Virus record (IMG/VR): IMGVR_UViG_2695420746_000009 | Span: 1 to 13,740 of that record | Strand: one strand, 5' to 3' | Length of the DNA stretch: 13,740 nucleotides | Source of the DNA: a virus | Lineage: Duplodnaviria; Heunggongvirae; Uroviricota; Caudoviricetes | Shown here: positions 1 to 13,740 of the stretch, one piece after another | Numbering within the stretch: the stretch's first letter is position 1 | Layout: each line of letters opens with the position of its first letter | Position numbers and translations under genes: made by a program | Notes under the pieces: model-generated | Seen by the model: the letters and a program-made list of their open reading frames with translations, nothing else | What the model was told of the DNA's origin: nothing | Databases searched by the model: none

Positions 1-84
1 ATCACGGTAATGATTAACAGCCCATGACAGGCAGACGATGATGCAGATAATCAGAGCGGAGATAATCGCGGTTAACCTGCTCAT
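1..84 (-). CDS. Rz: i-spanin Rz, N-terminal 28 codons only (gene runs off the window start)
   Basis: Reverse strand from 84 reads [28 protein letters not shown], near-identical to my recollection of the lambda Rz N-terminus (single TM anchor). Its ATG overlaps the endolysin stop (ATGA). Confidence 0.85.
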
Positions 85-581
85 TGCTGCCCCCACAAAC
101 AGACTTCACGCTCAATATCACGACGGGTCATCAGCCCTTTCCATTGCTTACCGCCAGCGTATGTCCAGCGACGTAGCTGGTCACATGCGCCTTTGATATA
201 GCCCTGGTTTATTTTGCGAAGAAGCGTCGATGTTCTGAAATTGCCAGCACCCACGTTGTAGACGAACGAGTAAAGAGCGCCGCGCGTTGTTTCCGGTATA
301 TCGACTTTGATGTACGGGTTAATTTGTCTGGCGACCGTGGCAAGGTCTTTATTCAGGAGGGCTTTGCATTCTGCTTCGGTATACGTTTTACCTAGCATGA
401 TGTCTTTTCCAGTGTGTCCGTAACATACAGTCCATACGCCAACAATATCTTTGTATGGTATGTAACTGACACCTTCCAGACCATCGTTACCACTTGGGCC
501 AGTGATGAGCATAGACGCTATGGCAATAGCCCCGCCACCAATAGCAGCTGTGACAGCTTTGCGTAATGATGACTGCATCAT
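81..581 (-). CDS. SAR endolysin (phage lysozyme, GH24, P21 R-like)
   Basis: 166 aa. N-terminal Gly/Ala-rich weakly hydrophobic segment [20 protein letters not shown] typical of a signal-anchor-release domain, followed by a T4-lysozyme-like catalytic region ([24 protein letters not shown]). Near-identical to my recollection of P21 R. Tandem ATG ATG start overlaps the holin stop. Confidence 0.9.
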
Positions 582-850
582 ATTTCCTTCGGTGCTCTCT
601 TCCCCAGCTCTCCAATAACCATCGCTGTAGCAGAAAGATTATTGGTATTAGTTTTATCCAATATGTCCTGCAATATCTTCGTGCGCTTCATCTGCTCGCG
701 TTTATTGAGCCGGTATGTAAGCACACCGAGGATAATGCTGAACGCGACACCGATAATGAAGCCCCAATCCTGCAATGACAGGCTGGCAAAGAACGCAGCA
801 AGACCAGCGCTACCATAAGATGCACTGCTGTATCGTTCATCCATCTTCAT
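578..850 (-). CDS. class II holin / pinholin with dual-start motif (holin and antiholin)
   Basis: 90 aa with two hydrophobic segments ([11 protein letters not shown] and [18 protein letters not shown]) and a charged C-terminus. Starts Met-Lys-Met (ATG AAG ATG), the classic dual-start arrangement. SD GAGGT lies 7 nt upstream. Sits immediately upstream of, and overlapping, the SAR endolysin. Confidence 0.75.
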
Positions 851-945: not shown

Positions 946-2022
946 TTACTCAAATAACTTTTTCACTTCATCAACTGTCTGAAGATAACGTTCGCTCTCA
1001 ATCTCAATACCTATTGCCTGACGTCCTAACTTCAGCGCAGCTTTAATAGTTGAGCCTGATCCCATAAAGAAATCGGCAACGATATCTCCGGGGCGTGAAC
1101 TACTCTTTATAATATGTTCCATCATCGCTGCAGGTTTTTCACATGGGTGCTTGCCAGGATAATATTGCACAGGAGGAAACTCCCATACATCGGTATAAGG
1201 TACATCAGCAGTAACATGAAATGGACGGCGTAAATTTTCATACTGAGTCTTCAAATCATCATACTGCTTCTTTACTTCCTCATAATGCAATTTCAGATCG
1301 CTATAACGCTTTTCATGTTCTGAATAATCAACATTAAAAGGATATGGACACGGGACACCGAGTGAATCTGCCTTCCTGCGAAATAATTCGCATAGTTTAT
1401 TAAAATCAATTAATGATGGAAGCCGCCACTGCGAATAAGAAAACCAGTGTGAACACATCTGCTTTCCTGTCGCTGAATTAATGTCTGCGGCTGATATATC
1501 TAACTGACGGCGAGCCAGCGAAAAAGCATCAATTAGTGGAGAAAATATATTTTTTCTTAAATCTGCACATTTTGAAGCATAACCTGACTGACCTTTAGCA
1601 TAACCTGACGCGCCGTAATGCTCTGCAAATAATATTCTTTCAGTAGCAGGAAAATAAGCCCTTAAACTTTCTTTATGACAACCGCGCCACATACCACTGG
1701 GTTTAGCCCAAATGATATGGTTCAGAACATTGAAACGGTCGCGAGTTAATAATTCAATTTTTGACGCAAGGCGAGAGCCGGTAAACATATACAGGCTGCC
1801 ATTAGGGGCCAATATCCGCCAAAATTCTGCCAAAAATTCGTCAATCCACCCCAAAAAGTCAGCATCGCTATCCCACTGGTTATCCCATGCGTTAGCCTTT
1901 ACGCCGAAGTATGGTGGGTCTGTTGCAATCAAATTGACCGAGTTATCAGGGATGGTTTTGATAAATTGCAGAGAATCTGCGCAAACGAGTTGTGCGCCAT
2001 GAATATTAGTGGTTTTGAACAT
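946..2022 (-). CDS. DNA N6-adenine methyltransferase, beta class (orphan, phage late-region moron)
   Basis: Motif IV DPPY near the N-terminus (LIATDPPYFG) and motif I FxGxG near the C-terminus (DFFMGSGST), i.e. the beta-class order. A coiled-coil-like insert (KRYSDLKLHYEEVKKQYDDLKTQYENLRR) lies in the presumed target-recognition region. Start chosen at the ATG giving MFKTTNIHG; the ORF track extends to 2067. Neither start has a clear SD. Confidence 0.85.
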   Translation of the reverse strand: MFKTTNIHGAQLVCADSLQFIKTIPDNSVNLIATDPPYFGVKANAWDNQWDSDADFLGWIDEFLAEFWRILAPNGSLYMFTGSRLASKIELLTRDRFNVLNHIIWAKPSGMWRGCHKESLRAYFPATERILFAEHYGASGYAKGQSGYASKCADLRKNIFSPLIDAFSLARRQLDISAADINSATGKQMCSHWFSYSQWRLPSLIDFNKLCELFRRKADSLGVPCPYPFNVDYSEHEKRYSDLKLHYEEVKKQYDDLKTQYENLRRPFHVTADVPYTDVWEFPPVQYYPGKHPCEKPAAMMEHIIKSSSRPGDIVADFFMGSGSTIKAALKLGRQAIGIEIESERYLQTVDEVKKLFE

Positions 2023-2157
2023 AGCTATTATTTTTTTGCCTGGGTAAGCTAACCCAGCGATGCGCATCGCGGGTGGGCTTTAGGTTCAGCCTATAGCTCT
2101 GGCATGGGTTGACCGCAGGACAAGCTGCAACTTGTCCTGCGCCCACTTTTCAGGCAC

Positions 2158-2179
2158 AAAAAAACCGCCATAAAGGCGG
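2158..2179 (-). terminator. Intrinsic terminator for leftward transcription (GC hairpin plus U7)
   Basis: Plus strand CCGCC-ATAAA-GGCGG (2165-2179) preceded by a run of 7 A (2158-2164). On the minus strand this is a 5-bp all-GC stem followed by UUUUUUU. Confidence 0.6.
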
Positions 2180-2218
2180 CTTGTTGGCTATTGGGTACAA
2201 AAAACCCAACTTAACAAA

Positions 2219-2247
2219 ACAATAACTAAAAACCGTCATTTTGCCAA
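2219..2247 (-). promoter_or_regulatory. Candidate sigma70 promoter firing leftward into the terminator and late genes (pR'-like by position)
   Basis: Minus-strand TTGGCA (rc of 2242-2247), 17-nt spacer, TATTGT (rc of 2219-2224). The terminator lies about 30-55 nt downstream. No other promoter-like sequence is visible before the methyltransferase start. Confidence 0.35.
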
Positions 2248-2289: not shown

Positions 2290-2517
2290 TTAGAAAGTTG
2301 CCTGCTTATATTCATCGGTCAAAGAATATCGACCAGACCCACTACGCTTTGCAACCCCAAAACAGATCATCTGTTCGATGATAAATTCAACGGCAGCCTG
2401 ACTCAAAAAACAGGCTTCGCTTAACTCTTTCAAGGAAATGCGTGGATATCCACGCATAACACATTCCACACTCAGGGCCGCTTCGGTCATATTTCCACGA
2501 ATTTCATTAATATTCAT
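2290..2517 (-). CDS. Hypothetical small protein with probable winged-helix/HTH segment
   Basis: 75 aa. SD GAGAGG 4-5 nt upstream of the ATG. Helix-turn-helix-like stretch ISLKELSEACFLSQAAVEFIIEQM followed by a Gly-rich wing-like segment. Second gene of a two-gene minus-strand operon, ending at the terminator. Confidence 0.55.
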   Translation of the reverse strand: MNINEIRGNMTEAALSVECVMRGYPRISLKELSEACFLSQAAVEFIIEQMICFGVAKRSGSGRYSLTDEYKQATF

Positions 2518-2530
2518 AACGCCTCTCTAA

Positions 2531-2752
2531 TCAATCTTGAAACTGGAAATCAACATCAGCCATAAAGCGGTTCAACTCAGCCAGTTTTGGCCCCATAGTC
2601 CCAATTAAGCGGCCAGCCAGTCGGTCTGTCAGGTTGGTACTGTTGAAACCATATTCCTTTTCGAAACGTTCAACCTTCTGCCACAACTCATACAATTCGT
2701 TAGCTATCTCCGCAACGTCGCCGCGCATTTTTTCGTTACCTTGATAATTCAT
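2531..2752 (-). CDS. Hypothetical small acidic protein
   Basis: 73 aa from the internal ATG (MNYQGNEK...), which has SD GAGGA 4 nt upstream. The ORF-track start at 2770 has no usable SD. Gap of 13 nt to the downstream HTH gene. Confidence 0.5.
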   Translation of the reverse strand: MNYQGNEKMRGDVAEIANELYELWQKVERFEKEYGFNSTNLTDRLAGRLIGTMGPKLAELNRFMADVDFQFQD

Positions 2753-2839
2753 AATATCCTCGAAATTCATATAGTTAGTGGGTTATCCCCCTCAACAACA
2801 CGAACTGTAACTCTGCCAAAAGAACACATCCAGTGTTAT

Positions 2840-2857: not shown

Positions 2858-2915
2858 TTTTATATTTGCTTTGTTTTCTCGTTTTGGTGTATTTTGCGCG
2901 TTAGGAGGCTATAAT

Positions 2916-3227
2916 ATGTTTAACGTGATAACCCACCCTGCAGCACTGGATGAACTGCTTGAACTACCAGACGATCTGCGAGGTCGCATGACCAGGCTAA
3001 TTGAACGACTGGAGAAAGAGGGAAACAAACTTAAGATGCCCCATAGCCGTGTAATAGGCGGAGGACTCTTTGAACTAAGAGTAGGGGATAAAAACATCGC
3101 AAGAACGCTATACGCCTACGCGACTGGTAACGAAATTTATCTATTGCATGCATTTGTAAAAAAGACACAGAAAACACCAGTAAAGGCTATAGAAATCGCC
3201 AGAACTCGCCTGAAGGAGATGAACTGA
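2916..3227 (+). CDS. Type II toxin, RelE/ParE superfamily, HigB/Gp49-like (addiction module killer protein)
   Basis: 103 aa from the ATG with SD AGGAGG 7 nt upstream. Family-typical motifs LFELR, LLHAF and KKTQKTP. Stop overlaps the start of the downstream HTH gene by 1 nt. The ORF-track start at 2871 is over-extended. Confidence 0.8.
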   Translation: MFNVITHPAALDELLELPDDLRGRMTRLIERLEKEGNKLKMPHSRVIGGGLFELRVGDKNIARTLYAYATGNEIYLLHAFVKKTQKTPVKAIEIARTRLKEMN

Positions 3228-3514
3228 TGAAAGCAAAAGGCATCCCGTTTAACGAAGTAAAGGAAAAACTACTCAACACTCCAGAAGCTATCAAAGGATA
3301 TGAAGAGGCCGATAAAGAACTGGAGATGGTCGAAATGTTATACGAAATGAGGGAAAGAGCAGGTTTAACGAAGTCAGCTCTGGCAGAACGAATGGGATTG
3401 CGCCCGTCCGCCATCAGCCGCCTGGAAAGCAATCCTTTAGGGGCAAGCATGAAAACTTTATCAAAATATGCCCAAGCATGTGGCGCAACAATTAATATTA
3501 ATGCCGTCTATTGA
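3227..3514 (+). CDS. HTH (XRE-family) antitoxin, HigA-like antidote protein
   Basis: 95 aa. Classic HTH LTKSALAERMGLRPSAISRLE. Translationally coupled to the upstream toxin in toxin-first (HigBA-type) order. Confidence 0.8.
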   Translation: MKAKGIPFNEVKEKLLNTPEAIKGYEEADKELEMVEMLYEMRERAGLTKSALAERMGLRPSAISRLESNPLGASMKTLSKYAQACGATININAVY

Positions 3515-4017: not shown

Positions 4018-4344
4018 TCACACTTTGAGCACAAGTTTCAGCCTCGTAGTTGTAAGGTGACATGAGCCTTCACCATCAAAAATACATTCTGAAACAGGCA
4101 TTTTCTGACCACATCGCGGGCAAGTAGTAGATAGCTGCTTCTGCAGCTCCTTATAGTTTTTCCTGATCAGCAGACCGATGACTTCATTCTCTGAATATGG
4201 AACTCGTCCCGGTCTACGCAATACACAAATTTCCCCCAACATACGTAGCTCGTCAGGTTCCAGAATCCAGTCCCGTCTTGATGTGCCTTCCTTCTTCAAC
4301 CGTTCCCTGCGTCTCCTTTGCCGTTCTGCAGCTGTCAGCGCCAT
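4018..4344 (-). CDS. Hypothetical protein with arginine-rich N-terminus and C-terminal Cys cluster
   Basis: 108 aa. SD AGGAGG 4 nt upstream. N-terminus AERQRRRRERLKK; Cys cluster CPRCG...C...C. Last gene of the minus-strand operon. Confidence 0.6.
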   Translation of the reverse strand: MALTAAERQRRRRERLKKEGTSRRDWILEPDELRMLGEICVLRRPGRVPYSENEVIGLLIRKNYKELQKQLSTTCPRCGQKMPVSECIFDGEGSCHLTTTRLKLVLKV

Positions 4345-6362: not shown

Positions 6363-6566
6363 CTATACCCAAATTTTCTGTTGATATGTTCTGGATGGTT
6401 TTGGCGTTCTTTCTGATTCAGGTAAATGAACATAAACGCAATATCCATCACCTAAAAAATCAGAACGAACAACCAGAACTTTCTTACCACGCCGCCGATA
6501 AGTATCTGAAAGACGCTCTGCTTCATCATGCGTCATCGGCCCCTGCTTAAATGGCGTTATTTTCAT
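6363..6566 (-). CDS. Hypothetical small basic protein
   Basis: 67 aa from the ATG (MKITPFKQ...). The 18-bp palindrome lies 6 nt upstream of the start; no clear SD. The ORF-track start at 6590 is a GTG inside the palindrome. Confidence 0.5.
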   Translation of the reverse strand: MKITPFKQGPMTHDEAERLSDTYRRRGKKVLVVRSDFLGDGYCVYVHLPESERTPKPSRTYQQKIWV

Positions 6567-6867
6567 TTTCTTGTGCGACCGCGGTCGCACCCTCGCTGAT
6601 TTCCAAGTAACGCTTAATCCAAAGATTTTCTATATGCTTATTACCTGGCTGATTTGATAAATACCAATCGGCAATTACAGACTGCTTATTACTATCTGGT
6701 CGTGTCCTGTAACCACAAGTTGGACACCAGATAACATATTCATTTCTTACCCCCGAATACCTTAATTCTGGCTTCGACGGTTTCCTGAACATAACTTGTT
6801 TACAAAGGCAGAATGGCACTTCCTGCCCGATGGCGTTTGATGATTTCACTGCGCTTCTCCGCCGCAT
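6547..6867 (-). CDS. Hypothetical protein with Cys pairs (CxC ... CPxCG), possible zinc ribbon
   Basis: 106 aa as given in the ORF track; start uncertain (no SD at either candidate ATG, and it overlaps the upstream gene by 68 nt if full length). Cys pattern CLC ... CPTCG. Confidence 0.4.
   Translation of the reverse strand: MRRRSAVKSSNAIGQEVPFCLCKQVMFRKPSKPELRYSGVRNEYVIWCPTCGYRTRPDSNKQSVIADWYLSNQPGNKHIENLWIKRYLEISEGATAVAQENENNAI
6573..6590. repeat. Perfect 18-bp palindrome GTGCGACCGCGGTCGCAC; copy 2 of TGCGACC-NN-GGTCGCA motif
   Basis: Read directly. Lies within the 3' end of ORF 6547-6867 (encoding ATAVAQ) and immediately upstream of the start of the 6363-6566 gene. Confidence 0.5.
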
Positions 6868-7510
6868 TTAATAATGCGGTTCGATTTAAGCTCAGACATC
6901 GCGACTTAATTAAAAGCCAGCGTTCTTTATAATCTTGTCTCCAGCTATCAATAGATATATTCAGTAGAAAACTCAGATGCCTGTCCTGTTCTCTCTCATC
7001 AACTGCCTCAGCACACGTAAGTTCTGATTTAACCTGCTGTGCCGCGTAATAAATCAATTTCCGCATGGCTTTTTTCGTGGAGGCCTTCATTTTTTTAAAG
7101 CCGCCCCCAGAATGAGCAACCAGAAAATCAAGCCATAACCACTGACAAACAATCACATCATTGTTGTAGTCAGGCTTGCATCCGTAGCAATAATAAAGCC
7201 AGGCTGATTCCTCGTTATTCAACTGACCAATAGCCCTGCGCCAGCTGGCGCTCTGAAAATCAATATCAGTGAGCAACATTGATGATTGTTTAAATGTTTT
7301 CCCTTGGTGGAATCTAACCGACTCAGCGGGAACGGACACTTCGTATGAGTTATCATCCCCCACACTGATTGACCGGACTGGTTTATTGTTAAACCGTCCT
7401 GATCTACCGAGACGCATCTGCTCAAGCTGGACCTCCAGAATGCCACGCTGGCGATAATGAACATCAGCCAATGCCGTAGAGACGCAGCTGCGTATATACT
7501 CAAGCTCCAC
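6800..7510 (-). CDS. Hypothetical protein; positional candidate for a late-gene antiterminator (Q-like), unverified
   Basis: 236 aa. GTG start with SD AGGAGA at 9-nt spacing, overlapping the cro-like stop by 11 nt. First gene after the cro-like gene. I cannot confirm Q-family membership by eye. Confidence 0.55.
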   Translation of the reverse strand: MELEYIRSCVSTALADVHYRQRGILEVQLEQMRLGRSGRFNNKPVRSISVGDDNSYEVSVPAESVRFHQGKTFKQSSMLLTDIDFQSASWRRAIGQLNNEESAWLYYCYGCKPDYNNDVIVCQWLWLDFLVAHSGGGFKKMKASTKKAMRKLIYYAAQQVKSELTCAEAVDEREQDRHLSFLLNISIDSWRQDYKERWLLIKSRCLSLNRTALLNAAEKRSEIIKRHRAGSAILPL

Positions 7511-7721
7511 GCTTACGACTCTCCTTAATCGACTGCTTTACCCGCCGAGTTGTAAAGTCACTCTTCAGCTTGTAAGCAGTACGAACTTCAATATCGCTTT
7601 GCCGCAATGAAGGAATCTCTCCAGCGGTTAACCATTGGTAAACAGCTCCGGGTGTTACACCTACCCCTGCCGCTGCTTTTTCAACACTGCCAAAGTGGCG
7701 AATAAGTTCTTCTGGTTTCAT
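7500..7721 (-). CDS. Cro-like HTH regulator
   Basis: 73 aa from the ATG giving MKPEELIRHF. HTH VGVTPGAVYQWLTAGEIP resembles the lambda Cro GVYQSAINKAI region. Divergent from the CI-like gene across an operator-bearing intergenic region. TATAAT lies 7 nt upstream of the ATG, so the mRNA may be leaderless. Confidence 0.7.
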   Translation of the reverse strand: MKPEELIRHFGSVEKAAAGVGVTPGAVYQWLTAGEIPSLRQSDIEVRTAYKLKSDFTTRRVKQSIKESRKRGA

Positions 7722-7749
7722 GTTGTTATTATAAACAATAAATAACAAT

Positions 7750-7812: not shown

Positions 7813-8409
7813 ATGAAAACACGAGGCGAACGACTGAAAGCACGCCGTTTAGAGATGAAGCTGACGTTGCGAGAAGTTGCTGAGGCTGTCGATATCTCTA
7901 TAGCAGGCGTCCAAAACTTAGAACGTGGCGACGTAATGCCGTCACTGGAGATAGGTATTGCCCTGGCTAAGTGCTTACGCAAGCCAGTGCATTGGGTGCT
8001 ATATGGGACAGAATATGACCCTGATCGCATTCCTGTTATTGGCACAACTGAAAGTGGGCCTGATGAAGAGTGGAAGCCGGGACAGGTTCCAAATACTGAG
8101 CGATTCCTGCCATTCATCAGCCAGCGCAATACTGTGTATGCGTTAACTATCAGCAATCTTACGCAGGGAAACTATCAGCCAGGCGATTTTCTCCTGGTCG
8201 ATTCTGCGCTGGAACTGGTCCCCGGCGAGGATGTTCTGGTTCGTGATACTGCAGGAAATATCACTATCCAGCGCCTAGCCCGTTTTGATGATGAAAATTA
8301 CTATCTGGATGGAACAAACTCACAACGCGCCATCTTCAGGAAAAGCGATCTTGAATTTGTTCACCAAATAGTCGGAACGATCAAATCATTCATGGTTGAG
8401 GGTAGATGA
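7813..8409 (+). CDS. CI-like prophage repressor (N-terminal XRE HTH, C-terminal CI/LexA-like domain)
   Basis: 198 aa. HTH LTLREVAEAVDISIAGVQNLERG. C-terminal region resembles lambda CI around PGDF (QPGDFLLVDS ... VGTIKS). I could not locate a canonical G-D-S-M catalytic Ser context by eye, so autocleavage competence is uncertain. Confidence 0.8.
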   Translation: MKTRGERLKARRLEMKLTLREVAEAVDISIAGVQNLERGDVMPSLEIGIALAKCLRKPVHWVLYGTEYDPDRIPVIGTTESGPDEEWKPGQVPNTERFLPFISQRNTVYALTISNLTQGNYQPGDFLLVDSALELVPGEDVLVRDTAGNITIQRLARFDDENYYLDGTNSQRAIFRKSDLEFVHQIVGTIKSFMVEGR

Positions 8410-8654: not shown

Positions 8655-11600
8655 ATGACATTAAACGATTTCTATGCGGATCGCTTTGGCAGCGATCCGT
8701 TCTCGCTAATTGAAGCAGCACGGGATGAACTAACCGAGCTGGCACAGATGGCTGGTATCAACTGGCCTGCCTGTTCCGACAACATCCAACTCAACCCTCG
8801 CGGGGGAGTTGAGCGTTACTCTTCATACAATAAAACATCTCCAGAAGCTCTCGAAAAGAGCCTGAAAGGACGCGTAGAAATTTACTCCCGGCTGGAACAC
8901 AGCAAAGGGATTGATTACCCGTTCATTAACTTCGTCCATAAAGGCAGCGATGCTGGCTCATGGAGCGGTTTCTCCTTCCTGTTTTCTGAATATCGCCGTG
9001 AGCAACAACGGAATAATGCGACCGTGGTCGCACAACCGGAAGAAGAACGGGAAAGAATAGAACGTCAGGCCGAAGCACGTCGTCGCCGTGAAGAACAAAA
9101 ACGAATTAATGACCTGAAAAACAACCAAATGGACCATGAACGTTTGCTGGGATGGCTGGCATTCCACAGCGCGTGGGAACATGCTCCGGCTGAAGACGGC
9201 TCATGGCCATATGCGATTAAAAAAGGTATTCGTGACGTTTTTAGTTCATGTGATGTGCGTCGCGTGACCAGTCACGACAGTGCGAAATGGAGCCGGGGGC
9301 CAACCACATATATGGCTATCCCTCTGGCTCACCTGGACGGTCGTTACGATGGTCGTATTGTGGGTTGGCAGCGAATCGACAAACAAGGTGGGAAATACCA
9401 GACCAGCGCAGTAACCAGCGGCGATTTCGTCGGTGCCTGCTTTGTTATCGGTGAGCTGAAAGGGGCGCAAAACATCGCTGTTACAGAAGGTTTTGCTACT
9501 GGTGCATCCATCTGGCTTGCCACGAAAAAAGATAAACGCTTTGACGCTGTGGTTGTCGCTGTATCCGCTAACAACATGGTTCATGTTGTGGAACAACTGG
9601 TAAACATGTACCCAGCGGCAAAAATCACCTGCGCACTGGATAATGACCGGAAATCTGCCACAGAAGGAAAAGGGAATACCGGCCTGCGGACTGGCTATGA
9701 AATCTTATCGAAATTCAACGATGTCCGCTGCGTCTATCCAACTTTTGAAGACGATCCGCAAATGGAGTGCAGTGACTTCAACGACCTGCACAAACTACGT
9801 GGACTTCGTGAAACCGCACGTCAACTATTTACAACAGCAAACCGCCTGAAAACCGGTACTGATTTGCTATCTCTGACGCTCAACCGCCTGAAGACAATTA
9901 AGCGGGATAACCGTCGTACTTTTGCCAAAGAGCTGCTGAGAGCGGTGGATATTGGCATGCTAACCTGTCCAGTTCCTAACAGTCCGTCAGATTTATTTAA
10001 CATGTTCTGCATCGTTCTGCGTGAAATGGGACTGGAAAATATCTATCGCGCTACGGTAAAAGACCACATTGCCCGTCGCCTGAATAAAAAGTGCCGTATT
10101 GCCCAGGCTCCGCGCTCTTTCAGCGAACGCATAACTGATCCCAATAAACGCCCTCAACATATCACCTATAAGCGTTTTGAAACTTCGGTAATGACCGATG
10201 ATGTCCTGAAGTACGTGCAATCACTACAAGGGATAGTCATCGTCCGTGCTGGTATGGGTTCCGGCAAATCTACAGGATTGTTACGACCATTAATGCATAG
10301 CTCAGAACGTGGTATCTCTGTTGCTCACCGTGTCTCCCTTATTGGTGGCCTGTGGGAAATGATGACAGAAGGAAAAGGTGTAAAAGCCGATATCCTGCAC
10401 TATCAGGACCCTGGCTATCAGGAAATGGCTCCATACGCCAGTAAACTGACCATCTGCATAAACTCGATTGTCAAAAACTGCTGGCAACCGTTGATGCGCC
10501 AGCACGACTATTTTGGCTTTGACGAGGCCACACAAGGGCTACGTGCCGTTCTTTCCGGTCGGGCTATGGAAAACCCGGTGGCTGTATTCAATACGCTAAT
10601 TGACGCGCTGGCCAGAACGGAACAACACCCAATCATGGTGGATGCTGATGCGAACGATCTGCTGGTTGACCTAGCTGAACTGGCTATGAAACGCCGTGAA
10701 GAACTAGGTTTACCGGCATGGCTGCAGATCCACGTAATTGAATTACCTGTTGATGTTCGCAACCGCGAAACAGGTGAGCCAATCCGGGTTTTTTATACAG
10801 AAAAAGATCGCATCATGACCGAGGTGGTGAAAGCTGTATCGGATGGCGAAAAAATCATGTTGGCCACCGACAGCTCCACCTTTGCAGAAGATGTGACAGC
10901 CACCCTGAGAATGCATTTTCCTGGTAAGAAATTTCTGTGTGTAAACCAGAAAAACAAACCAGAGCCAGAAGTTGAAGCATTTACCAATCAACCGAAAAAG
11001 ATGGTCAAAAAATACGACGGCCTGATTTATAGCCCGTCTATTTCATCCGGCGTGTCGATTGAGCAAAAACATTTTGACCGTCATTTCGGCATGTTCTGTG
11101 GTGAAGTTGTACCCAGCGACGCAGTGCAAATGCTACGCCGCGACCGTACAGCAAAAGAATTTATTATCGGCTTTGATAAAGCTCGTGCAAAACGTGAAAC
11201 TGACCCGCAAAAAATAGAACGAGCATTCGCCCAGGCATTGCTTGCTACCGCAGGTATGAACGGTGAACTGACGGATGTTGTTTTCGATGGCGACCGTATA
11301 TCAATGGGGGTGGCCAATACCGACTTTACCAGGATGAAAATTAAAGCAGCCGCAATTGAAGCGACTGCGCGTAACGACTACGCCAGCAACATGATCTGCA
11401 TCATGCACAGCGACGGTTATAAGGTATCGCCGCTGGCCACCGATTATGCTGCGAATGATATCGGTAAAGATCTGCGTAAAGAAGCGCGGGATATTGTGTG
11501 GGAACAGACACTGGATCTGCACCTCAATACAGAAACTCCACAAGAATCAGAGCGTGAAGAACTGCTAAAAAAACGCGCGCTGACGCTTGAAGAACAGGCA

Positions 11601-12698
11601 AAACTTGTCCGCTGGGATATTGAAAACGAACTGAAACTACCGGTTGAAGAAGGCACGCTGAAATTCTATTTCGATGGTGCTCGAGACAAAGTTCGCCGCT
11701 ATGAAACAATGCTTTTAGATGAGGTAACAGCTCGTCGTTACGACCGGGAAGAAGCAGCCATCAATTTTACCTACGCATACCGTCAGGCGGGACAGTGGCA
11801 ATATTTTGTAGTGACCGCGATGACTCGCGAGCAGGCTGATGATGTCTTTAAAACTAAATTCCCTGGAATAATCGATCACAAGGTAAAAGCTACTCCTACT
11901 GTTGAAGTCGGGGCGCGCGGTTTCTATGCGCTTAAATCAGCAACTCTCCGGCAGTACTTTATCGACTGCGGTATCAACCCTGAGACTATGACCGGCGAGG
12001 CGACTCAGGAGCGTCTCAAATTTGCTCGAGATAACCTCATGACAGCCGAACGCCGTGACCTGTTGAATAACGTTCTGCACATTGGTGGTTTTATGACGCC
12101 AAAAGGGAAGCCTAAAGTGCCGGAAGCGTTGTTTAAAAACATTTGCGACTCTCTTGGCCTTAAAACAGGTAAACGTCGCGGCAGAGACGGCGATAAGCGT
12201 CCAACCTTGCGTTTTGTTGAGCCTGAATCAGCGGCATTTATGCTGGATATTCTTGCTCAGCGTCAGAAAGATGGCCTAACCCTGAAAACGCGTAAAGCCG
12301 AGAAGACCGCCATCGAAATGGATCGCGATTTGGATCTCAATATATATATGGATGATAAAACGCGATCCACAAACGAGCAGGTTCAAAACGCCCCTCATTC
12401 AGTAATTTCTGAGGCTTTGGCTGTGTTGCCAGTGGTTGTACCTGAGTCCTGGGCGATGAGTGCGCTTTCCGGTGAGGAGCTGGCCACTATGTCATCATGG
12501 TCATCAGCCAGCATAGCTATGACGTTTGCATCTCTGTACCTCACAGAGTTCATGGATCACTTATCCAGCAATGAACTGCGGCGGTTACGTGAATACATTA
12601 CCGGGAATAGCTGGATTTGCCCCTATATTTCCAGACATCTGTTATCACTTAACCCATTACAAGCCCGCTGCCGCAGATATTCCCGTGGCGAGCGATAA
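8655..12698 (+). CDS. Large multidomain replication initiator (primase-helicase, N15 RepA-like); 3' end disrupted by IS2
   Basis: 1347 codons as an ORF. Toprim-like motifs ([12 protein letters not shown] and CALDNDR) around aa 280-330, Walker A GMGSGKST around aa 535, Walker B-like FGFDEAT, then a roughly 700-aa C-terminal region. Native sequence ends at 12611 (1319 codons); codons 1320-1347 are read from the IS2 terminal inverted repeat. Weak SD. Confidence 0.8.
9017..9034. repeat. Palindrome TGCGACC-GT-GGTCGCA; copy 3 of the motif, inside the repA-like coding sequence
   Basis: Read directly. Encodes ATVVAQ in a charged linker ([21 protein letters not shown]), in the same codon phase as copy 2 (ATAVAQ). 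Confidence 0.5.
12320..12368. other. Candidate origin-like element inside the 3' part of the repA-like gene
   Basis: 8-bp inverted repeats GGATCGCG / CGCGATCC flank ATTTGGATCTCAATATATATATGGATGATAAAA, which includes an (AT)5 run and three GATC sites within 49 bp. Confidence 0.3.
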
Positions 12699-13528
12699 CC
12701 CAGCGCACTATGCGGATGCCATTCGTTATAATGCTCGAACGCCTCTGCAAGGTTCTTTGCTGCCGTTAACCCGTCTGGTTTGGGCATGATACTGATGTAG
12801 TCACGCTTTATCGTTTTCACGAAGCTCTCTGCTATTCCGTTACTCTCCGGACTCCGCACCGCCGTGTTCTTCGGTTCAAGTCCCAACATCCGGGCGAACT
12901 GGCGTGTTTCATTAGCCCGGTAGCATGAACCATTATCCGTCAGCCACTCCACTGGAGACGACGGAAGATCGTTGCCGAAGCGGCGTTCCACCGCTCCCAG
13001 CATGACGTCCTGTACTGTTTCACTGTTGAAGCCGCCGGTAGTCACCGCCCAGTGCAGTGCCTCACGATCACAGCAGTCCAGCGCGAACGTGACACGCAGT
13101 CTCTCTCCGTTATCACAGCAGAACTCGAACCCGTCAGAGCACCATCGCTGATTGCTTTCTTTCACGGCCACTCTGCCTGTATGTGCCCGTTTCGATGGCG
13201 GTACAGCAGGTTTTCGCTCAAGCAACAGCGCATTCTGGCGCATGATCCGGTAAACACGTTTGGCATTGATCGCAGGCATACCATCAAGTTCTGCCTGTCT
13301 GCGAAGCAGCGCCCATACCCGACGATAACCATACGTGGGCAGCTCTCCGATAACATGGTGTATACGGAGAAGCACATCCGTATCATCAGTGTGACGACTG
13401 CGGCGGCCATCCATCCAGTCATCGGTTCGTCTGAGAATGACGTGCAACTGCGCACGCGACACCCGGAGACAACGGCTGACTAAGCTTACTCCCCATCCCC
13501 GGGCAATAAGGGCGCGTGCGCTATCCAC
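12623..13528 (-). CDS. insD: IS2 transposase OrfB (InsD), normally expressed as an OrfAB fusion by -1 frameshift
   Basis: 301 aa beginning [23 protein letters not shown] and ending SDNRCLEI, matching IS2 InsD from memory. DDE-type integrase core. Confidence 0.9.
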
Positions 13529-13740
13529 TTTTTTGCCCGTCCATATTCAACGGCTTCTTTGAGGAGTTCATTTTCCATCGTTTTCTTGCCGAGCAGGCGC
13601 TGGAGTTCTTTAATCTGCTTCATGGCGGCAGCAAGTTCAGAGGCAGGAACAACCTGTTCTCCGGCGGCGACAGCAGTAAGACTTCCTTCCTGGTATTGCT
13701 TACGCCAGAGAAATAACTGGCTGGCTGCTACACCATGTTG
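13486..13740 (-). CDS. insC: IS2 OrfA (InsC), C-terminal part (5' end beyond the window)
   Basis: Reverse strand reads ...[20 protein letters not shown] ... [24 protein letters not shown], then a stop. Overlaps the insD start region, which contains the slippery AAAAAAG. Confidence 0.85.

Follow-up and report, generated by a model that had tools for sequence, protein, structure and literature searches.

A putative late promoter cassette in an N15-like telomere phage, several kilobases downstream of its Q antiterminator gene

Gene content of the window

The stretch of DNA analysed here (the window; 13,740 nucleotides) belongs to a Ravinvirus, an N15-like telomere phage of the linear-plasmid type, as identified by megablast. 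Its relatives in that search include Escherichia phage PhiR46_1 (96% identity over 92% of the window) and YDC107_1 (95%), and it is about 76% identical to N15 across the conserved parts. The last 1.1 kb matches IS2. This insertion (12611-13740) is 99.8% identical to known IS2 and disrupts repA, the primase gene, in its 3'-terminal part at about codon 1319; the similarity to PhiR46_1 ends at window position 12612. A tRNA scan found no tRNA or tmRNA genes in the window.

On the minus strand the order is cro, Q, a Lar-like ORF with several small genes, gp50-like, gp51-like, a promoter and terminator, methyltransferase, holin and lysozyme. The principal genes are as follows.

7813-8409, strand opposite to cro and Q: CB repressor gene
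7500-7748, minus strand: cro
6800-7510, minus strand: gene Q, coding for a Q82-family antiterminator, in the immB region downstream of cro (PF06323, E = 1.2e-82; phrog_304)
2531-2770, minus strand: gp50-like gene
2290-2517, minus strand: gp51-like gene, for a small protein predicted to be a winged helix (AlphaFold pLDDT 92; Foldseek matches to MarR/IclR winged-helix domains, E ~5e-4; phrog_331)
946-2022, minus strand: Dam-like DNA methyltransferase gene, the first late gene (Pfam PF01555, E = 5e-47)
81-850, minus strand: lysis genes, comprising holin (578-850, Pfam holin families) and lysozyme (81-581, Phage_lysozyme, E = 1.3e-45), in line with the annotation of close relatives

Among the remaining genes, the ORF at 6547-6867 on the minus strand overlaps the end of Q and appears as "QD1" in older N15 records; it belongs to a Lar-like restriction-alleviation family (phrog_6795, E = 3e-45). 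Two plus-strand ORFs at 2871-3514, syntenic with N15 genes 49 and 48 (a RelE/ParE toxin and its regulator), stand between the early-right genes and gp50-gp51. The methylase likely starts at the ATG at 2022 and not at 2067, as C(T/C)ATG is aligned in all relatives at the starts annotated in PY54 and phiKO2. The PhiR46_1 annotation begins the methylase at the upstream ATG (2067), within the structured leader described below, and places a 53-aa protein across the promoter and terminator (window 2086-2247); both assignments are doubtful.

Predicted promoter, pause-like motif and terminators

Between the gp51-like gene and the lysis genes we identified a compact series of predicted regulatory elements, listed here in the direction of late transcription.

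2265-2286, no strand assigned: SopB (ParB-type) centromere site, homologue of N15 IR3; a 22-bp perfect palindrome, CTGTGCGACCATGGTCGCACAG, with its core at 2267-2284 (assigned by identity to the IR3 core and by the phiKO2 annotation)
2242-2247, minus strand: -35 element TTGGCA (the N15 -35 signal; part of the phiKO2 "putative late promoter"; TTGnnA kept in relatives)
2219-2224, minus strand: -10 element TATTGT, 17 nt after the -35 (annotated in N15 and phiKO2)
2205-2213, minus strand: candidate sigma-dependent pause element, with -10-like TAAGTT around the presumed +1 at 2212, a GGG triplet and a T-rich stretch
2190-2210, minus strand: predicted hairpin at the 5' end of the transcript, GUUGGGU/ACCCAAU
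2158-2182, minus strand: intrinsic terminator (tR'-like), stem GCCGCC/GGCGG(T) at 2180-2164, loop UUUAU, U7 at 2164-2158 (annotated as rho-independent in N15 and phiKO2)
2037-2156, minus strand: structured RNA leader from the terminator to the methylase start, closed by P0 (UGCCUG at 2156-2151 with CAGGCA at 2042-2037) and containing a long hairpin and three further helices
900-931, minus strand: second intrinsic terminator, in the gap between methylase and holin

A first-pass annotation, made from the sequence alone, had described a minus-strand pair of TTGGCA and TATTGT separated by 17 nt, with a GC hairpin and U7 within about 55 nt of it. The coordinates of the pair proved exact on recheck, and the hairpin and U7 are present at 2182-2158. 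The pair matches 9 of 12 consensus positions and qualifies in silico as a sigma-70 promoter. Promoter-like sites of this kind are nevertheless at chance level in the window (19 seen against 22.3 expected) and terminator-like sites only slightly enriched (19 against 14 expected). Taken alone, the hexamers are no better than chance, and an argument for function has to come from the relatives.

Over 273 nt, the region shares 84% identity with positions 41124-41397 of N15. The GenBank record of that phage has, in the gap separating genes 51 and 52, a -35 signal at 41162-41167, a -10 signal at 41185-41190 and a putative rho-independent terminator at 41229-41250. The phiKO2 record lists, after its gene 51, a partitioning site, the -35 and -10 of a "putative late promoter", a "terminator, putative" and gene 52 as a putative DNA adenine methylase. 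Since homologous elements are annotated in both phages, the feature is already known, as a prediction. By sequence comparison, the feature in the window is the late promoter predicted in N15 and phiKO2, and a distant Q gene is the norm of the group.

The correspondence with these two phages extends from the sequence itself to the same neighbours (gp50, gp51, the SopB site, the Dam-like methylase and the lysis genes), the same positions of -35, -10 and terminator, and a Q gene in immB several kilobases upstream. Only sequence details differ. The -10 reads TATTGT in the window, TATCTT in N15 and TATCGT in phiKO2, and there are differences in the loop of the terminator and in the 3' arm of the 5' hairpin. 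The leader in the window is of the N15 class, not of the class found in phiKO2 and PY54. The N15 and phiKO2 annotations are themselves predictions; our literature search retrieved no experiments on transcripts, pausing or Q dependence in an N15-like phage, and a 2025 paper on telomere phages contains nothing on late transcription.

Viral and genome contigs were searched by pattern and combined with phage records, which yielded 67 usable copies of the element representing about 45 distinct sequences. They derive from telomere phages of Escherichia, Klebsiella, Enterobacter, Citrobacter and Yersinia. The pattern scan of genome contigs returned mostly unrelated terminators, with only a few enterobacterial loci proving real. 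One cassette, on a 52-kb contig labelled Limoniibacter endophyticus (NZ_BMZO01000013.1), is near-identical to those of Klebsiella telomere phages, and reflects either assembly contamination or an unexpected host.

Among the distinct sequences the hexamers drift while the form TTGnnA-17-TAnnnT and its position are kept. The -35 occurs as TTGGCA, TTGCAA, TTGATA, TTGCCA or TTGCTA, and the -10 as TATTGT, TATCTT, TATCGT, TAAAAT, TATCAT, TACTGT, TACTAT, TAAGAT or TATGAT. The sole exception is L119 (IMGVR_UViG_3300036778_000033), which has an extended -10. In the terminator, CCGCC...GGCGGTTTTTTT is invariant in 20 aligned representatives, with a variable loop. As judged from these alignments, it is conservation that raises the promoter-terminator pair above chance.

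A sceptical reading would treat the hexamers as coincidental and the hairpin with U7 as the terminator of an upstream early or gp50-gp51 transcription unit. It would account for the chance-level count of promoter-like matches, and the terminator does lie downstream of gp51 on the same strand. Yet the TTGnnA-17-TAnnnT form has survived many substitutions and the replacement of the whole spacer class, a promoter was called here by two annotation teams independently, and the fixed 5-nt distance from the -10 to an invariant motif is otherwise hard to explain. We give this reading scarcely any chance of being correct. The first-pass annotation had also found no other promoter before the methyltransferase and lysis genes. 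This was borne out: the only other promoter-like site (919-892), which overlaps the second terminator, is absent as a conserved element in N15 and phiKO2 and was set aside.

The invariant motif is TA(A/T)GTTGG(G/C) followed by a T-rich stretch, and it lies 5 nt past the variable -10 in all the distinct sequences except one, L090, where the distance is 4 nt. Sigma-dependent pause sites at the pR' promoters of lambda and phage 82 follow a common grammar, consisting of a -10-like hexamer that keeps A2 and T6, a GC-rich discriminator-like triplet and an AT-rich tract; at lambda pR' the GGG discriminator is at +7 to +9 (PMC5001585). By its fit to this grammar, the invariant motif is a candidate sigma-dependent pause element. 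If transcription starts at A2212, as we assume, the motif occupies about -1 to +8, a position that resembles lambda, that of phage 82 being +9 to +17 (PMC5001585), and a pause near +15 is predicted. A second occurrence of TATGTTGG (4236-4243) falls within coding sequence, has no promoter ahead of it and was dismissed as a chance match.

The same bases may serve a second purpose in the RNA. Folding of the short transcripts predicted a hairpin starting at +1 to +3 in 27 of 27 distinct sequences. Its 5' arm, GUUGG(G/C), is invariant and is matched by about ten different 3' arms, some of which pair only through G.U. That so many 3' arms compensate against a fixed 5' arm points to selection at the level of RNA, and the role of the motif as a hairpin arm could partly explain its conservation.

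A transcript running from A2212 to the terminator would be about 55 nt long and would form two hairpins (-21.5 kcal/mol, z = -3.75; 1 of 200 shuffled sequences folds as well). [quoted passage not shown] The RNA folds well into the two-hairpin shape typical of small RNAs, its architecture is kept in 27 distinct variants, and a search of the whole window against Rfam 15 (E <= 1) gave weak resemblance to small RNAs. All of those matches were sub-threshold, however, with scores far below the gathering values (AgrB, 26.4 bits against 40; ctRNA_pGA1, 22.9 against 45). The single-stranded linker between the hairpins is not conserved and offers no conserved seed, and no alternative late promoter or Q-loading site was seen near Q or before the lysis genes. 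Lambda PR' likewise releases a short terminated RNA, and does so as a by-product. On this balance a trans-acting RNA as the main function is very unlikely.

The downstream part of the locus is consistent with antitermination. Promoter and late genes are separated by an intrinsic terminator, after which come methylase, second terminator, holin and lysozyme in that order. N15 and phiKO2 have a terminator at the position matching 900-931, with unrelated sequences. Such retention by position and not by sequence is expected if the lysis genes need a processive antiterminator.

The predicted partition site and structured leader

The first-pass annotation had missed that the palindrome upstream of the -35 is a partition site. 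Its core, GTGCGACCATGGTCGCAC, is the sequence of the N15 IR3 oligonucleotide (PMC7205306, Table 4), and IR3 is one of four dispersed SopB binding sites, IR1-IR4, in N15 (PMC7205306). The shorter palindrome GTGCGACCnnGGTCGCAC, identical to the IR3 core, occurs three times in the window against 0.46 expected; the two further copies are at 6575-6588, downstream of Q, and at 9018-9031, inside repA. These three predicted sites match the dispersed arrangement of IR1-IR4 in N15, with no difference established between the two. The homologous 18 bp in the phiKO2 record are called a "putative plasmid partitioning site", and PY54-type relatives carry an F sopC-like sequence, TTGGGACCnnGGTCCCAA, at the same place.

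In the window, the palindrome lies about 20 bp upstream of the -35 and is centred about 63 bp upstream of the presumed start. We infer that SopB bound at about -63 may additionally dampen the late promoter in the plasmid prophage. A stronger proposal is that silencing by the SopB partition complex is the main control of the promoter and that antitermination is secondary. Its appeal lies in the near-universal presence of the site among the relatives, some 20 bp ahead of the -35, in the way its type (N15-like or F-like) switches along with its surroundings, in its duplication in some Klebsiella phages, and in the fact that SopB complexes on N15 centromere arrays have been assayed for silencing (PMC7205306). 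Still, the second terminator and the first, which is strong and invariant, would continue to block the late genes without an antiterminator, and L119 keeps the cassette without the palindrome. The two forms of control are not mutually exclusive, and silencing as the main one seems to us unlikely.

In Klebsiella phage 48ST307 (positions 1490-1590 of L005 in our set), and also in L092, L116 and L165, two tandem SopB palindromes about 47 bp apart lie upstream of the late promoter. L119 retains the pause motif, terminator, leader and methylase, and has neither the SopB palindrome nor gp50 and gp51 upstream.

Beyond the terminator, the RNA leading to the methylase start is predicted to be structured (-56.1 kcal/mol, z = -3.9 in the window). 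A covariance model built from sequences of the Klebsiella/Yersinia class only finds the N15-class leaders over their full length, the window scoring 60 bits (E = 4e-12). In an alignment of related sequences that was itself fitted to the model, 94.8% of the cells are paired, with compensatory changes at 15 of 33 pairs, while partners slid by 1-3 columns give 24-43% pairing. For the 5' (A/G)UGGG strand there are a proximal and a distal partner option, each with one compensatory change between the classes. A weak long-range pairing suggested by RNAalifold on a mixed-class MAFFT alignment was not adopted, the two leader classes being misaligned in it.

The leader matches no Rfam family. A pattern scan of viral contigs returned noise, and the covariance model found no copy in 76 such unrelated loci. 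Among other options, it may control translation of the methylase, stabilise the late mRNA or protect a long untranslated leader. It could represent a new class of cis-regulatory RNA for the expression or stability of the late transcript.

The distant Q gene and the proposed late switch

The first-pass annotation had nominated the ORF at 6800-7510 as Q by position, and its PF06323 match, which defines the Q82 family (PMC9388147), places it there by sequence as well. Its product is 66% identical to N15 gp40, 31% to the Q protein of PY54 and 28% to that of phage 82. A PDB sequence search with Q returned no solved relative, and NCBIfam holds no models for Q, gp50 or gp51.

The distance between Q and the promoter had been regarded as a puzzle, with the candidate some 4.5 kb away and either antitermination at a distance or a novel activator needed to explain it. 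It is no real anomaly. In each of the 29 relatives that show both, Q precedes the cassette on the same strand by 3.8-6.1 kb (4.6 kb in the window), and in N15 and phiKO2 a Q-like gene sits beside cro in the immunity region, 5.3-5.5 kb upstream of the promoter. Being a diffusible protein that binds DNA and polymerase, Q can reach its recognition site at the late promoter from elsewhere, and nothing requires the gene to adjoin that promoter. Q should thus act in trans, and what was called antitermination at a distance would be plain trans action. No promoter-pause-terminator unit was found after Q itself in the window.

The relatives fall into two promoter classes. With an N15-type Q (66-100% identical to that of the window) the promoter reads AAAAG(G/C)TTGGCAA...TTTTTAG(G/T)TAT; with a PY54-type Q (28-34% identical) it has TTG(C/A)nAAAAA-ATCACAAAA-like spacers. 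In phiKO2 and the Klebsiella phages an N15-type promoter is joined to a PY54-type leader and methylase, from which it follows that promoter class stays with Q where recombination has apparently joined the two types at the invariant terminator. The class of -35 and spacer tracks the Q subtype even where the class of leader does not. This agrees with published cross-tests, in which the Q of phiKO2 acts on N15 like N15's own and the PY54 genes do not (PMC4997575). The co-variation is suggestive of a Q-binding site in or near the promoter spacer. It falls short of proof because the SopB site class and gp51 co-segregate too, and common descent alone could account for the association of promoter class with Q subtype.

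A different route to late expression, which the first-pass annotation had offered as an alternative, would make one of the small proteins encoded next to the promoter a new kind of late activator; here gp51 or gp50, and not Q, would activate or antiterminate late transcription. In its modelled fold, gp51 is a winged helix standing alone and similar to the domains of MarR/IclR regulators, and in most relatives, PY54 included (32% identity), the cassette follows 78-126 nt after the end of a gp51 homologue. The comparison across relatives does not support such a role. Four of them (L109, L131, L136 and L119) have no gp50 or gp51 upstream of the cassette and keep promoter, pause motif, terminator and leader intact; Q is retained in L109, L131 and L136, and in L109 and L136 a DinI-like ORF and an unrelated ORF occupy the place of gp50 and gp51.

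It is because gp51 is missing from lineages that keep the cassette that we regard it as a poor activator candidate. In addition, no conserved dyad other than the SopB site, to which a known protein binds, lies near the promoter, every locus with enough visible sequence has a bona fide Q-family gene, and both gp50 and gp51 belong to PHROGs families listed as of unknown function. That either protein takes the place of Q is extremely improbable, and gp51 is probably a neighbour and not part of the mechanism.

Based on these observations, we consider it very likely that the locus is the late promoter cassette of this N15-like telomere phage and the counterpart of PR'-qut-tR'. The first-pass reading of a pR'/tR'-like, Q-dependent unit gains support from the homologous annotations in N15 and phiKO2, the pause-like motif, the second terminator and the Q82-family ORF. 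In the mechanism that we propose, E. coli sigma-70 RNA polymerase would initiate near A2212, and sigma would re-bind the -10-like TAAGTT-GGG in the first transcribed bases, leaving the polymerase paused at about +15. Without Q, the polymerase would halt at the hairpin-U7 terminator and release the short RNA. Once the CB repressor is lifted, the cro-Q operon would make Q, which would diffuse to the promoter, bind a putative DNA site there and load onto the paused polymerase. The modified polymerase would then pass both terminators, and the methylase, the lysis genes and genes beyond would be expressed.

A Q-dependent late cassette has been defined as a Q gene followed directly by a PR' unit, comprising a sigma-70 promoter, a QBE, a terminator that is read through in dependence on Q, and the late genes (PMC9388147). 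The Q gene of the window is not followed directly by such a unit, a departure that concerns layout and not mechanism. Shared with the lambdoid cassettes of lambda, 82 and 21 are the promoter, the -10-like element with its GGG discriminator, the nearby terminator, the late lysis genes and a Q-family protein. The terminator is about 55 nt from the start here and about 60 nt from PR' in phage 434, which also has a Q82-type Q.

In lambdoid phages of the Q82 type the cassette directly follows Q, whereas in the window Q is encoded far upstream in the cro operon. A Q82-family Q is here combined with a pause-like element placed as in lambda and not as in 82. Unlike in the lambdoid phages, a ParB-type centromere site abuts the promoter, and the window has a leader of about 120 nt and a 5' hairpin, neither of which the covariance model found in four lambdoid Q82-type loci. 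We put forward only tentatively, and with some doubt, that the N15-like cassette carries layers that lambdoid cassettes do not have, namely the SopB silencing site, the 5' hairpin, a possibly new class of leader RNA and the pairing of a Q82-type Q with a lambda-like pause.

The finding itself places a new Ravinvirus relative into the layout predicted in the N15 and phiKO2 records; modest additions to it that may be new are the assignment of the pause element, the hairpin at the 5' end, the SopB site next to the promoter and the structured leader. Q82 is the one Q family with a mechanism that is still open (PMC9388147), and comparing the dozens of promoter variants that occur naturally in N15-type cassettes, which fall into two Q-specificity classes, could reveal where Q binds. 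L119 would be useful for telling apart the functions of the parts of the cassette. The structured leader is a candidate new RNA motif, and, with a site for the partition protein directly next to the late promoter, plasmid maintenance may be linked to silencing of the lysis genes in a way that can be tested.
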